52,144 nt of DNA, taken from Bacilli bacterium (GTDB taxonomy: Bacteria; Bacillota_I; Bacilli_A; RF39; UBA660). Within the stretch, counting starts at the first letter, position 1. Each line of letters opens with the position of its first letter. Made by a program: the position numbers and the translations under genes. The notes beneath the pieces were generated by a model. The model saw only the letters and a list, made by a program, of their open reading frames with translations, was not told the DNA's origin and did no database searches. The DNA lies in contig JAGAYJ010000001.1 of assembly GCA_017940575.1 (NCBI GenBank), positions 1 to 52,144 on the forward strand, read 5' to 3'. Positions 1,584 through 6,474 of this stretch are shown one piece after another.

Positions 1584-1625
1584 ATAAATAAGGAAACTAT
1601 TATATAAATAAGTTTCCTTATTTAT
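1584..1625 (+). terminator. Perfect 15-bp inverted repeat after the VanZ gene
   Basis: ATAAATAAGGAAACT (1584-1598) / AGTTTCCTTATTTAT (1611-1625). Confidence 0.7.
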
Positions 1626-1685
1626 TTTATAAAAATAATATATACAAATTAAAAAAAATAACGTATAATTAAATTAGTTGTGAAT

Positions 1686-1727
1686 AAAAAGAGGGGAGGC
1701 TATAATTAATATTATAGGCCTCTTTTT
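1686..1727 (+). promoter_or_regulatory. Terminator-like hairpin in the 5' leader of the AAA operon
   Basis: AAAAAGAGG..GGCTATAAT / ATTATAGGCCTCTTTTT with a T-tract. It lies between a TATAAT (~1665) and the SD GGAGG (1745-1749). Confidence 0.45.
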
Positions 1728-1755
1728 GCTTTTTTACTTAAAATGGAGGAATAAA

Positions 1756-3198
1756 ATGGAACAAGAAGTAAGTAAATATATAGCAGTTAGATATTTAAAA
1801 ACAAGATTAAGTGATGATACATATGTTTTTTCTTTTAAAGATATTATTAGCTATGATACAGTTAATGAAGATAAGTCAATTAAATATATGAAAAAAGGCA
1901 AAGAAAAGACTTTATATAGTATAATGGATCCTGATTTTTTAATAAGTGATGAAAAGTATGGATTTGCCGAGACTTATGATTTAAGTTCTTTAATTAAATT
2001 TTATAATAATAGTAACTTAAATCTAATTGTAGAACTATTAAAACGAGCATATGATAATATAATTAGAATATGTATATTAGATGAGAAGAATTGCTATGTT
2101 AAAATGGCAAGCATAAAAAAGGAAAATTTAATTAATTATAAAGTAAGTAAAGAAAAATTTGCTGACTTTGTTGTAAATATAAATTCATTTGGTAATACTT
2201 TTATGTTTGATAAGAATGCTATAGATCTTCTAGTTGAGAATCTTGAAAATAAAGATTATGATGCCGCACTTGCAGAATTAAGATGTGTTAAAAAGATTCT
2301 GGAGGAATATGCTAAAACTCATAAAACAGAAAATTTATTAGTTAATATAGAACAAAAAATAGAACCTGATATAATTGATCATGAAAAAGAAATAGATTCA
2401 TTGATTGGCCTTGATAATGTTAAAAATTTTGTTCAAAAATTGAAAAATTATTTAATTTATTTAAATAAAGTAGAAGATAATGTTAAATTAGATAATCCTA
2501 ATTTAAGTATGGTTTTCTCTGGAAATCCAGGAACAGGTAAAACTACAATAGCAAGAATTATAGCAAGTATACTATATAATTTAGGTTATGTAGAAAATCC
2601 TGATTTTATAGAAACAACTGCACAAGATTTTATAGCAGGTTATGTTGGTCAAACGGCAATTAAAACAAAAGAGTTGATTGAAAGTCATAAAGGATCTGTT
2701 ATTTTTATAGATGAAGCATATGTACTTGCAAGTGAAGCACAGCACTTTGCGCAAGAAGCAATTGTTGAAATTATAAAAGAAATGGAAAGTCGTAAAACTG
2801 TCTTTATCTTCGCAGGATATAAAGATGAAATGAAAAAATTTATCGACATGAATCCAGGTATTAAATCAAGAGTTGGTAATTTTGTTGAATTCAAGGATTA
2901 TACTGAAGAAGAATTATTAGAAATATTTATGAAGAAACTAAAATCTTGTAAATTAAAAATTGGGCAAACTACGAAAGAACAAATAATGGAAATTATAAAA
3001 AAACATAAGAATACCGAGAGATTTGGCAATGGACGTTTTATTGATCAGTTATTCGATAAATTAATTATTAATCATGCAAATAATAGTTATCAATCTAATT
3101 CAATAAACAGTTTAACAACAATTCATCTAAAAGATTTAGAAGGTTTAGATGAGGAATTGAAAGATGAAAGTATAGTTAAAACAATAGGCTTTAAATAA
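1756..3198 (+). CDS. AAA+ ATPase of the SpoVK/CbbX/EccA-like clade with an unknown ~200-aa N-terminal region
   Basis: Walker A GNPGTGKT; AGYVGQTAIKT; Walker B IFIDEAY; FIFAGY; NPGIKSR; FGNGRF; C-terminal IGFK. ATG 1756 follows the SD GGAGG and is preferred over the TTG at 1726. Confidence 0.85.
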   Translation: MEQEVSKYIAVRYLKTRLSDDTYVFSFKDIISYDTVNEDKSIKYMKKGKEKTLYSIMDPDFLISDEKYGFAETYDLSSLIKFYNNSNLNLIVELLKRAYDNIIRICILDEKNCYVKMASIKKENLINYKVSKEKFADFVVNINSFGNTFMFDKNAIDLLVENLENKDYDAALAELRCVKKILEEYAKTHKTENLLVNIEQKIEPDIIDHEKEIDSLIGLDNVKNFVQKLKNYLIYLNKVEDNVKLDNPNLSMVFSGNPGTGKTTIARIIASILYNLGYVENPDFIETTAQDFIAGYVGQTAIKTKELIESHKGSVIFIDEAYVLASEAQHFAQEAIVEIIKEMESRKTVFIFAGYKDEMKKFIDMNPGIKSRVGNFVEFKDYTEEELLEIFMKKLKSCKLKIGQTTKEQIMEIIKKHKNTERFGNGRFIDQLFDKLIINHANNSYQSNSINSLTTIHLKDLEGLDEELKDESIVKTIGFK

Positions 3199-3211
3199 GG
3201 AGGAATGTAAA

Positions 3212-5113
3212 ATGAGTAAAATGTATGCAATGCTTATGGAAAGAGTTGCTATTGATGATATGTTTTATATTTTTAAGCCAATTGATAAAATAGAAGGATA
3301 TCTACAAAAATATAATGAATTTAGCATGTTTCAAACAGGAGAAGCAAACGCTTATTACTTGGCAGATGATATTATTTCTCTTGATTCTGATTATCGTTTT
3401 GTAGCGCATAATATAATAAGTGAAGAAGATTTATTGGAATTATATGATACAAATGATATAGAAGAAGCATTAGCTAACTATGTAAATGATAATTTTGAAA
3501 AAACATTTTTTGGACTAACAACATTTGAAGATGGTAAAATAGCAATGAGCGAAATAGAAACTGATGATTTAATATCTAAAATATATAATAGATGTGAAAC
3601 TTCATATAATGATGTTGCCTATACATTTAATAGTGATAATTTAAATATAGAAGTAACTTTAGAAGATGATATATTTGATGATTATATTTCAAGTAAATAT
3701 TTAAAAGAATCATTTGATAATGCGTGTACTTCAATTAAAATAGTAAATGATTATACAGAAATGATTGAATTGTTAGAAGATATTACTGACTTTTATAATT
3801 CTCTTTCAACTCGTTTTAAAAAAGAAGAACCAAAAGAATTAAGCTCTTTCTTTATGAAAATTGCGGAATTATTTAAAAAACTTTCTTTATTTAAAACAAC
3901 AGATGAAATAAAAGAAAAATTCTTTTCAGTATTTGATGAATTAAATGAAGCGAATAATATAGTTGTTAGAAAATACGAAGAATTTGAAAACAAAAATGCC
4001 GCACTTACTGTTGTTGAAAAAGAAGAAAAGTCTAAAATGATTAATGTAAAAGAAATGAAAGAAAAATTTGATCAAGTTATAATTGGCCAAGAAGATGCTA
4101 AGAAAGCAGTTATTAAGGCTATATTTAAAAATAGAGTTAGAGATAATATTGAATCATCAAATAAAAATAATTGCTTATTAATAGGCCCAACAGGATGTGG
4201 TAAAACACTTATCGCAGAGGTGGCAGCCAAATATTTTAATTTACCTTTAGATATAGTAGATTCTCCTCAAATAACTGCTGCAGGATATATTGGAGCGAAT
4301 ATAACTGATTGCTTAGAACACTTACTTTCACAAACAAAAGGAAATTTAAAAGAAGCAGAAAAAGGAATAATCGTATTTGATGAACTTGATAAAAAAGGAC
4401 AATTAGGAAGTGGCGTTAAAAGTGATGTTAATAAAGGTGATGTATTAAATGAAATGCTTAAATTTATAGAAGGTTCTAAATATGATGTTACTTATAATAA
4501 TAAAAATTATGTTTTTGATACATCTAATTTATCAATAATTGGAATGGGCTCTTTTGCGGCAGCTCAAGAAGATATGAATCAAAATGAAATAGGATTTAAC
4601 AAAAAACAAAATGAAATAGAAGAAGACATAAAATATAAAAAAATGACTACAGATGACTTTTCTAAAAAAGCTAATATACCTCGTGAATTAGTTGGTAGAT
4701 TTACAATAAAAAAACAATTATCTGGTCATACAATTGAATCACTTAGAAGAATTCTAACAGAATCTAAGTCAAGTGCTTTATTAAGTGAAAAAGATATTTT
4801 GAATTGCCTTGATATTGAGCTTTCATGGACAGATGATTTTTTAGATGAAGTTGCAAAAAAAGCAGTTAAACTTAAAACGGGAGCACGAAGCCTTAAATCA
4901 ACTATTGAAGAAGCAATAGAAGAAGCTGAATGGGAAGTGTTATGTAATTTAGATACATATAAAGGAATTATTTTAACAGATAAATCTGTAAATGATAACA
5001 CTGATATTTTATTAATTGATGTCAATGATAATAAACATAATTTAAAAGATATAATTGCTTCTAAAGATAAAACAAGTCTTTCTGTTCAAAAAGAATTAGT
5101 TTATAAAAAATGA
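3212..5113 (+). CDS. Divergent ClpX-like AAA+ ATPase with a long (~270 aa) N-terminal extension and no Zn finger
   Basis: VIIGQEDAKKAV; LLIGPTGCGKTLIAE; AAGYIG; AEKGIIVFDELDK; IGF loop (NEIGFN); ELVGRF; TGARSL. Confidence 0.85.
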   Translation: MSKMYAMLMERVAIDDMFYIFKPIDKIEGYLQKYNEFSMFQTGEANAYYLADDIISLDSDYRFVAHNIISEEDLLELYDTNDIEEALANYVNDNFEKTFFGLTTFEDGKIAMSEIETDDLISKIYNRCETSYNDVAYTFNSDNLNIEVTLEDDIFDDYISSKYLKESFDNACTSIKIVNDYTEMIELLEDITDFYNSLSTRFKKEEPKELSSFFMKIAELFKKLSLFKTTDEIKEKFFSVFDELNEANNIVVRKYEEFENKNAALTVVEKEEKSKMINVKEMKEKFDQVIIGQEDAKKAVIKAIFKNRVRDNIESSNKNNCLLIGPTGCGKTLIAEVAAKYFNLPLDIVDSPQITAAGYIGANITDCLEHLLSQTKGNLKEAEKGIIVFDELDKKGQLGSGVKSDVNKGDVLNEMLKFIEGSKYDVTYNNKNYVFDTSNLSIIGMGSFAAAQEDMNQNEIGFNKKQNEIEEDIKYKKMTTDDFSKKANIPRELVGRFTIKKQLSGHTIESLRRILTESKSSALLSEKDILNCLDIELSWTDDFLDEVAKKAVKLKTGARSLKSTIEEAIEEAEWEVLCNLDTYKGIILTDKSVNDNTDILLIDVNDNKHNLKDIIASKDKTSLSVQKELVYKK

Positions 5114-5140
5114 TTATAGTAAAAAAACTATAATCTTTTT
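5112..5140 (+). terminator. Intrinsic terminator of the AAA operon
   Basis: GATTATAGT / ACTATAATC followed by TTTTT. Confidence 0.7.
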
Positions 5141-5190
5141 ATTTTTTGTGGTAAAATAAATATGTAAATTTTAATGAATTAGGTGATATT

Positions 5191-6474
5191 ATGATACAAA
5201 AGCCAAAAGGAACATATGACGTTTTTGGAGAATATGGTAAAAAAGTTAAAGAATTAGAAAAAATAATGAATGCTTTAATGGAAAAATATAACTATGAATA
5301 TATTAGAACTCCACACTTTGAAGCAAGTGAATTATTCCACAGAGGTGTAGGCGAAACTACTGATATCGTATCTAAAGAAACATATGATTTTATAGATCGA
5401 GGAGATAGAAACATGACACTACGCCCTGAAGGAACTGCTGGTGTTGTTAGAAGTTATATTGAAAACAAAATGTATGGAGAAGCTATAAACCCTAGAAAAC
5501 TATGGTATTATGGACCAATGTATAGATACGAACGTCCTCAATCAGGAAGATTTAGAGAATTCTATCAATTTGGAGTTGAAGTGTTTGGAACAAATAATCC
5601 TATGATGGATGCTGAGGTTATATCTATTCCAGTTAATTTTTATAAATTACTTGGACTAAAAGGTATAAAAGTTAATATTAATACATTAGGCGATAAAGAA
5701 TCACGTGATGCATATAGAAATGCACTTCTAGAATACTTTAAACCACATTTAGATACATTATGTGAAGATTGCAAAGAAAGATATTCTAAAAATCCACTTC
5801 GTATATTAGATTGTAAAGTAGATGCTAATAAAGATATTATGAAAAATGCTCCAAAAATAATAGATTATTTAAATGATGAATCAAAGAGTCACTTTGAAAG
5901 CGTTAAAAAATATTTGAGTGTTTTAGGTATTGAATATGTAGTTAATCCTAAATTAGTTAGAGGATTAGATTATTATACACATACTGTATTTGAAGTAGAA
6001 GCTAATGTTGAAGGATTTGGTAGTCAAAATGTATTATGCGGTGGTGGAAGATACGATCATTTAGTTGAAATGGTTGGAGGTCCATCCACTCCAGGTGTTG
6101 GATTTGCCATGGGACTAGAGAGACTTATGACAGCCTTAGACTATGAAAATATTAACTTAGTTGAACATGATCATGTTGATTGTTATATTGTTCCAATGAA
6201 TACTAATGATTATAGTTTTGCGCTTATGCAAGATTTAAGACTTAATGGTTTTAGTGTAGATATGGATTATATGAATAGAAAAGTTTCTAATAACTTTAAA
6301 CAAGCAGATAGATTAAAGGCTAGATTTATAATTATAATTGGTGAAGATGAAGTAAATAGTAATATCTTAACTGTTAAAGATAATCATACAAAAGAAGAGT
6401 TTAAAGTTAATACTTTAGATATAATTGATTTTTTAGATGAAAAATTAGAAGATTGTGGTTGTGAAGAAGAGTAA
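5191..6474 (+). CDS. hisS: Histidine--tRNA ligase
   Basis: PKGTYD; RPEGTAGVVR; YERPQSGRFREFYQFGVE; LVRGLDYYT; GGGRYD. Confidence 0.97.
   Translation: MIQKPKGTYDVFGEYGKKVKELEKIMNALMEKYNYEYIRTPHFEASELFHRGVGETTDIVSKETYDFIDRGDRNMTLRPEGTAGVVRSYIENKMYGEAINPRKLWYYGPMYRYERPQSGRFREFYQFGVEVFGTNNPMMDAEVISIPVNFYKLLGLKGIKVNINTLGDKESRDAYRNALLEYFKPHLDTLCEDCKERYSKNPLRILDCKVDANKDIMKNAPKIIDYLNDESKSHFESVKKYLSVLGIEYVVNPKLVRGLDYYTHTVFEVEANVEGFGSQNVLCGGGRYDHLVEMVGGPSTPGVGFAMGLERLMTALDYENINLVEHDHVDCYIVPMNTNDYSFALMQDLRLNGFSVDMDYMNRKVSNNFKQADRLKARFIIIIGEDEVNSNILTVKDNHTKEEFKVNTLDIIDFLDEKLEDCGCEEE

Follow-up and report, generated by a model that had tools for sequence, protein, structure and literature searches.

The window analysed here is a stretch of 52,144 nucleotides from a Bacilli bacterium (GenBank assembly GCA_017940575.1, contig JAGAYJ010000001.1, positions 1 to 52,144), and this report concerns two adjacent genes in it, S and X, both of which encode AAA+ ATPases. 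Their motors belong to different clades (SpoVK/CbbX/EccA for S and ClpX for X), and the first ~115 residues of the two proteins are homologous; this N-terminal domain (N-domain) is previously undescribed, confidently folded and without a detectable match in Pfam, the PDB or BFVD. Conservation applies to a genomic slot that takes one or two family members with either motor, and not to the two-ATPase pair itself. We believe, with moderate confidence, that the best overall explanation is a single unfoldase family with a shared N-terminal module (N-module) and either motor, both kinds of member feeding ClpP. The two genes are as follows.

1756-3198, plus strand: S gene, a SpoVK/CbbX-clade AAA+ ATPase of 480 amino acids that begins with the new N-domain and has an IGF tail at its C-terminus (open reading frame list, family and PDB matches)
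3212-5113, plus strand: X gene, a ClpX-type AAA+ ATPase of 633 amino acids with the new N-module where the zinc-binding domain would be

The shared N-domain and its two motors

Pairwise BLASTP of the N-terminal regions of S and X gave no significant match, so a comparison of profiles was needed, and these were built from relatives in the same genus and family. With hhalign the two domains match at 97.4% probability (E 1.3e-11, score 68.5) over 113 columns, S 7-120 and X 3-115, which are exactly the segments that the original prediction had aligned by eye over ~120 amino acids. Controls with one reversed and 30 column-shuffled profiles, in which the composition was preserved, scored no higher than 17.7. 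The BLASTP result and the ~25% guanine and cytosine (GC) content of the genome could suggest a likeness due to chance or to AT-rich composition; we consider this refuted by the 31 controls, by the retrieval of both motor classes from 1.8 billion proteins with a single profile (the domain being always N-terminal) and by S/X pairs with 58% identity over the first ~370 amino acids.

1768-2130, plus strand: N-domain of S, residues ~5-125 (hhalign and profile matches)
3212-3568, plus strand: N-domain of X, residues 1-119, a beta-rich alpha/beta fold (hhalign; model as described below)
3692-4030, plus strand: predicted four-helix bundle of X, residues 161-273, after the N-domain and before the motor

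The AlphaFold2 model of the N-domain has seven strands and three helices (predicted local distance difference test, pLDDT, 91.8). The original prediction did not recognise this domain, and nothing alike was found by sequence or by fold: there was no match in Pfam, in the sequence-profile search of the PDB or in Foldseek searches of the PDB and BFVD (none below E 0.1). A Foldseek search of the PDB with the whole N-module, including the helical bundle, gave no informative match either. In all of these Foldseek searches no match was better than E 0.07, and the top rows, the DnaK substrate-binding domain and four-helix bundles, are not meaningful. In X the predicted bundle is preceded by a disordered segment (residues 127-156).

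The assignment of the two motors to different clades, which was also part of the original prediction, holds by Pfam, NCBIfam and the PDB. The features of the S motor are the following.

2383-3135, plus strand: AAA+ module and AAA_lid_6 of S (Pfam, NCBIfam and PDB matches)
2521-2544, plus strand: Walker A, GNPGTGKT
2635-2652, plus strand: pore loop AGYVGQ, residues 294-299
2698-2718, plus strand: Walker B, VIFIDEA
2851-2871, plus strand: NPGIKSR, residues 366-372
3184-3192, plus strand: C-terminal IGF, residues 477-479 of 480 (the protein ends in TIGFK), in the extension past the lid

Pfam identifies AAA (PF00004, 2.9e-16) and AAA_lid_6 (PF17866, 1.9e-8) in S, and NCBIfam identifies SpoVK (TIGR02881, 8e-60), CbbX (TIGR02880, 7e-56) and EccA (TIGR03922, 1.5e-45); the closest PDB relatives are CbbX (3zuh, 3syk) and EccA1 at E ~1e-40. 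The signatures of the SpoVK-EccA clade are a GY in the sensor-1 region, an asparagine upstream of the initial arginine finger and a second arginine at sensor-2 (PMC11513918). S contains FAGY (352-355), NPGIKSR and GNGRF (424-428) in alignment with CbbX; thus, it shares with the clade (TIGR02880, TIGR02881, TIGR03922; PDB 3zuh, 3syk, 9lur; PMC11513918) the AAA and AAA_lid_6 modules, the sensor-1 GY, NPGxxSR and GNGRF. The tyrosine of the pore loop is common to both, in GYVG of S and QYIG of CbbX. A variable N-terminal domain is typical of the clade and is found in S as well; however, that of S consists of the ~120-residue domain and a linker, unlike the short N-terminal domain of SpoVK with three strands and a helix. 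S also differs by its conserved [IL]GF tail, by being evolutionarily interchangeable with a ClpX motor in a clade reported without peptidase association, and by its scores: 202 bits with the SpoVK equivalog TIGR02881, which is below the cut-off of 423, and ~200 bits against the clade cut-offs of 423 and 459; the EccA match is likewise far under its equivalog cut-off.

For X, the features are as follows.

4046-5029, plus strand: ClpX-type AAA+ module of X (alignment to ClpX structures)
4184-4207, plus strand: Walker A, GPTGCGKT
4280-4297, plus strand: pore loop AGYIGA, residues 357-362
4370-4390, plus strand: Walker B, IVFDELD
4589-4597, plus strand: IGF loop, residues 460-462, on the IGF of the ClpX structures 6sfw and 9ndj
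4691-4702, plus strand: arginine finger, VGRF
4880-4897, plus strand: sensor-2, GARSLK
5030-5110, plus strand: lysine-rich C-terminal extension of ~27 amino acids (...SVQKELVYKK), past the ClpX-homologous region

Pfam finds AAA_2 and ClpB_D2-small in X, and the best NCBIfam matches are to ClpX (3e-57, 3e-51) with HslU next. The closest PDB relatives are ClpX, with which residues 279-606 align with all catalytic motifs in place. Compared with ClpX (NF003745 / TIGR00382; PDB 6sfw, 9ndj, 6po1), X is alike in the Walker A and B motifs, the GY(V/I)G pore-1 loop, the arginine finger, the sensor-2 GAR and the position of the IGF loop. The differences are a new module of ~275 amino acids (the beta-rich domain, a disordered linker and the four-helix bundle) instead of the C4 zinc-binding N-domain, the lysine-rich C-terminal tail, a gene that is not beside clpP, and scores far below the equivalog cut-offs (194.2 versus 359 for NF003745 and 174.5 versus 370.75 for TIGR00382). 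The zf-C4_ClpX domain was not found in X (residues 1-280 give no Pfam match at E<=1). The GY(V/I)G pore loops that the original prediction read in both proteins, the IGF loop retained by X together with the loss of its zinc finger, and the IGFK end of S are therefore all present, and the tail of S is conserved in the S-type family.

The C-terminal extensions of X-type proteins are generally rich in lysine (30% K/R versus 12% overall), often of the form ...K-x-[VL]-[YLV]-x-K-K, and can be seen in P0010, P0033 and others. A few X-type proteins have IGF-like ends: KVKIGFN (G010, L008), KKIGAM and KTLGGNL.

One slot and either motor

The initial homologue searches with the N-regions gave only 1 and 4 proteins, and an exhaustive profile search was used instead. 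Among 1.84 billion representative proteins it retrieved at least 318 clusters, of which 124 are at E<=1e-10. Every match has the domain at the N-terminus, fused to a ClpX-type or a SpoVK-type motor. Only the S and X reading frames of the host genome match the profile (1e-40 and 1e-33). These are the partners and the copy number that the original prediction had proposed to survey with a profile of the domain. The domain occurs in 36 genomes of the 251 in the bacterial family (33 of 214 genera).

Motors were typed in 153 proteins, i.e., the 150 matches listed of the 318 clusters together with S, X and close relatives of these two. Of the 153, 28 are clearly S-type, ~90 are X-type, and the rest are mostly short fragments. 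The tree of the N-domain requires at least 11 switches between the S and X motors, four of them forced by well-supported branches, versus ~30 for shuffled labels. Two pairs show this most plainly: L039_g2 (S) shares 58% identity with P0013 (X) in the first ~370 amino acids, P0027 (S) shares 38% with P0036 (X) in ~430, and in both cases different motors follow. The switches in the tree together with these pairs indicate that the N-module is a cassette recombined with either engine.

The same exchange is found in the chromosome. Among the genomes of the genus, three have S alone in the sigK-hisS slot (G002, G007, G009) and four have X alone there (G005, G006, G008, G010). Both genes are present only in the host genome and in its closest relative G003 (72% identity), so the two-ATPase operon of the original prediction is not conserved. 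In distant metagenome contigs, the N-domain genes are again just upstream of hisS-aspS, this time behind relA-dtd (L039 has two S genes in tandem, L048 only one S); the adjacency to sigK is lost in distant relatives. An X+X tandem is present in L046, a short contig without hisS, and also in G001 and G004. Tandem pairs, S+S or X+X, combine two different subtypes of the N-domain. Considering the species with S or X alone and the S+S and X+X tandems, we conclude that S and X belong to one family in which either can stand in for the other, and are not obligate partners.

The original prediction also allowed for a role in defence, and an accessory mobile or anti-phage module might be proposed from the patchy distribution among the genomes of the family, from weak PADLOC hits to IetA and TRIP13-type AAA models, and from an MNT/HepT toxin-antitoxin pair that adjoins the gene in one relative. 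We consider it highly improbable. The slot is fixed in the core genome (sigK or relA-dtd ... hisS-aspS) across divergent species, and the neighbours are housekeeping genes; the PADLOC matches (IetA, TRIP13, mad8) are partial, cover the generic AAA core only and have E>=2.6e-8, and neither protein has a significant full-length match to the PADLOC defence ATPases or their partner genes nearby. No integrase, repeats or effector genes were found at the S/X locus, and the host genome has only two copies of the domain.

The toxin-antitoxin pair just mentioned (Polbeta / HepT-like) is located at 3331-4092 of L044, between the sigma factor gene and an S-type gene with a double AAA module, the product of which has 739 amino acids and ends in KKLGF.

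IGF motifs and the proposed partnership with ClpP

Across the X-type members, an [IML]G[FY] is retained where ClpX has its loop, together with the Walker A and B motifs, the pore loop, the arginine finger and sensor-2. For the S-type members, we looked for [ILVM]G[FY] in the final 25 residues. Of 28 representatives, 25 have it, typically as ...K-K-[IL]-G-F and either terminal or close to the terminus; in one of these 25, a truncated protein, the match is internal, and two of the three that lack the motif end in KGF and AGF. A second, independent set comprised 120 SpoVK-family proteins, and here the tail was found in all 11 with the N-domain versus 10 of the 109 without it; a rough estimate of its chance frequency is ~2%. 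The IGF at the end of S is thus conserved in the family and not a chance ending. It is located ~17-20 residues past the AAA_lid_6 match, which makes it a flexible extension.

The ten IGF-tailed proteins without the N-domain (P0160, P0162, P0194, P0196, P0200, P0216, P0229, P0249, P0255, P0260; L081-L084) include ones with Sel1-repeat N-termini and tandem AAA modules, and they have no ClpX-type twin. Since ~9% of the SpoVK-family proteins lacking the domain end in [IL]GF, the tail appears to be a wider, undescribed trait of part of the clade. In our literature searches, no report connected SpoVK-type ATPases with ClpP or mentioned an IGF at their C-terminus.

To our knowledge, the only known drivers of ClpP are ClpX and the Hsp100-type (ClpA/C/E) unfoldases, which dock via internal IGF/LGF loops. 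In the rings of classical-clade AAA+ proteins, the C-terminus leaves the substrate-exit face, where the HbYX tails of PAN/Rpt dock on the 20S proteasome; a C-terminal IGF is thus geometrically suited to reach a peptidase ring. The analogy extends to other proteasome-type tails (GQYL of Mpa and the C-terminus of HslU), which are likewise short hydrophobic C-terminal motifs for the pockets of a peptidase ring. It is an analogy only: the tripeptide of S is of the ClpP type (IGF/LGF), and the presumed target is the heptameric ring of ClpP, not 20S or HslV.

The host genome encodes one ClpP (C33, 12678-13214). No canonical clpX was found in it, nor any ClpX-like gene besides X; this is the result of a check proposed in the original prediction. 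Many genomes of the bacterial family have ClpP and ClpC-like genes and wholly lack a ClpX-like gene, and ~16% have no detectable ClpP.

The mechanism that we propose is as follows. The lineage has an AAA+ unfoldase family defined by a new N-terminal, probably targeting, module, i.e., the beta-rich domain of ~115 amino acids usually followed by a helical bundle, which has been joined repeatedly to two unrelated motors, a ClpX-type (HCLR-clade) or a SpoVK/CbbX-type (classical-clade) one. X would dock on the housekeeping ClpP via its retained IGF loops, and S via its flexible C-terminal [IL]GF tail in the manner of the HbYX tails of proteasomal ATPases; both motors would hand to ClpP the clients or adaptors picked by the common module. 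The host carries both versions in one operon that is almost certainly co-transcribed, and one version suffices in related species. X very probably works with ClpP. S may well do so too, through its tail, at about even odds. By analogy with the N-domains of other AAA+ proteins, clients or adaptors are the most likely ligands of the N-module.

The main rival of this explanation is that only X works with ClpP, and S is a non-proteolytic remodelling chaperone, similar to CbbX, SpoVK or EccA, acting on the same clients; its tail would then bind, for example, a partner, the N-domain, a membrane or the forespore surface. We regard this as rather unlikely. It is in agreement with the survey of the SpoVK-EccA clade, which reports no peptidase association and regards the members as dedicated, non-degradative chaperones (PMC11513918), and with a spore-forming host where SigK adjoins the genes and SpoIVA is present. 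It also agrees with the IGF tail kept in G227, where no ClpP was found, and with the IGF-tailed SpoVK-like genes elsewhere that have no clpP neighbour. Against it, S takes the place of X in the same slot and behind the same N-module, which argues for an equivalent output of the two proteins, and the tail motif is the ClpP-docking tripeptide, nearly universal in the S-type members.

Another point against the chaperone proposal comes from G035. Its SpoVK-like gene without the N-domain (283 amino acids, ending in ...KERGGIFD) shares 8 nucleotides with the beginning of another clpP gene, a second and divergent paralog, and is thus translationally coupled to it; the paralog keeps Ser, His and Asp. 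The pair is located in L034 (G035, contig C6) at 921-1460 and 1453-2304 on the minus strand, with an AraC-like regulator upstream.

Several observations weigh against the delivery of clients to ClpP by both motors or are neutral to it. The clade survey cited above is one of them. The pairing in G035 was found once only among ~250 genomes of the family, and a search of 250 of them gave no orthologue of its clpP paralog; no clpP was found in three neighbourhoods of other IGF-tailed SpoVK-like genes. The host also encodes a ClpC-like protein with a VGF loop (C30), which is another likely partner of ClpP, so the retention of ClpP in species with S only proves nothing. ClpP is present in 31-32 of the 36 genomes with the N-domain versus 211 of 251 overall, i.e., without enrichment. 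Four of the 36 (90-95% complete) have no detectable ClpP, and the absences number 4-5 in all where ~3 are estimated from incompleteness alone, a difference too small to speak for either side; the N-domain proteins of these four genomes keep VGF, LGF or IGF loops or a KKLGF tail. The missing ClpP may be due to incompleteness of the metagenome-assembled genomes, or the IGF motif may have another partner. Finally, the role of the N-module as a receptor of substrates or adaptors is proposed by analogy with the N-domains of other AAA+ proteins, and the module has no structural analogue.

A second ClpP-like gene was also noted in G023 (L079, contig C7, 1536-2129). Its context is phage-like (SSB-like, metallo-beta-lactamase-fold and primase/helicase-like proteins and a recombinase), and we rejected it as a relevant partner; it is probably a prophage protease.

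Another possibility is that the N-domain serves assembly, localisation or autoregulation (e.g., by dimerising or tethering), so that S and X share their regulation and not their clients. The zinc-binding domain of ClpX, which is replaced here, is itself a dimerisation module; two distinct subtypes of the N-domain meet in the tandem pairs, and there is no fold match to known peptide-binding domains. We nevertheless find it unlikely, because in AAA+ unfoldases the choice of substrates or adaptors generally falls to the N-domain (ClpX, ClpA/C, Cdc48, EccA; for this clade, PMC11513918) and because the domain was kept through repeated swaps of the motor, as expected of the part that determines specificity.

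We thus retain the explanation with one targeting module and two motors that both feed ClpP. A more general proposal goes with it: the [IL]GF-tailed motors of the SpoVK/CbbX clade would be genuine ClpP-activating unfoldases, a third architectural class beside ClpX and ClpA/C/E, used interchangeably with ClpX behind one client-selecting module in these Bacilli. This we put forward tentatively, as somewhat short of probable.

The locus, sporulation and the meaning of the observation

The distance between the two genes is 13 base pairs on the plus strand, as stated in the original prediction. The remaining features of the locus are as follows.

402-1097: gene for a SigK-type sporulation sigma factor, upstream (TIGR02846, 300.5 bits versus a cut-off of 298.65)
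1146-1577: gene for a VanZ-family membrane protein, upstream
1586-1630, plus strand: hairpin and T-rich tail 3' of the VanZ-family gene (folding, -13.5 kcal/mol, z -5.2)
1641-1706, plus strand: two weak sigma-70-like promoter matches, TATACA-17-TATAAT and TTGTGA-17-TATAAT, with a match frequency no higher than in shuffles
1692-1735, plus strand: strong leader hairpin followed by TTTTTGCTTTTTT, directly 5' of the ribosome-binding site of S (folding, -16.2 kcal/mol, z -3.4)
3199-3211, plus strand: S-X intergenic spacer of 13 nucleotides, with the GGAGG ribosome-binding site of X and without a terminator
5112-5147, plus strand: AT-rich hairpin of 9 base pairs and a T-run directly after the stop codon of X (folding, -8.7 kcal/mol, z -3.6), a weak terminator candidate before hisS
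5191-6474: hisS, downstream, followed by prfA and prmC

The hairpin at 1586-1630 is likely the boundary of the upstream operon. The leader hairpin at 1692-1735 overlaps the -10-like TATAAT and may act as an attenuator or else terminate the upstream gene in addition to the hairpin before it; the ATG of S is also preceded by GGAGG. The original prediction assigned a single shared terminator to S and X. Folding agrees with it in that a hairpin follows X and nothing like it was found between the genes; however, the consensus scan of the locus reported no terminator, so the candidate 3' of X comes from folding alone, and we consider one terminator common to both genes plausible but weak. Owing to the 13-nucleotide spacing and this pattern of hairpins (none between the genes and a candidate after X), S and X are almost certainly co-transcribed in one operon upstream of hisS. 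At the edge of the window, positions 2-352 encode a C-terminal fragment of an Rpn-family recombination-promoting nuclease/transposase-like protein (TIGR01784) with a repetitive EGIKEGIKEGIEKGIKEGLEKG stretch.

The host genome is small (~1.02 Mb, ~25% GC, 89% complete). It encodes SpoIVA (C16, 113921-115393), as does each of the other ten genomes in the genus; together with the SigK-type factor, which is above the cut-off of TIGR02846, this suggests that these Bacilli with very small genomes are spore-formers. ClpXP and SpoVK have known roles in the coat checkpoint of Bacillus (PMC11513918). A role of S and X in sporulation is possible in view of the adjoining SigK gene and of SpoIVA in the genome.

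We believe that the occurrence of two motor types with one module in one slot is independent evolutionary evidence for the same output of the two ATPases. If the explanation that both feed ClpP is true, ClpP would have a broader range of partners than has been assumed, and docking on ClpP would be seen evolving by the addition of a tail, as in the proteasomal ATPases. The family would also offer a natural motor-swap experiment, i.e., a matched pair of motors for separating the contribution of the motor from that of the targeting domain. As for the organisms, the canonical ClpX N-domain has been replaced in Bacilli of ~1 Mb that apparently retain sporulation.

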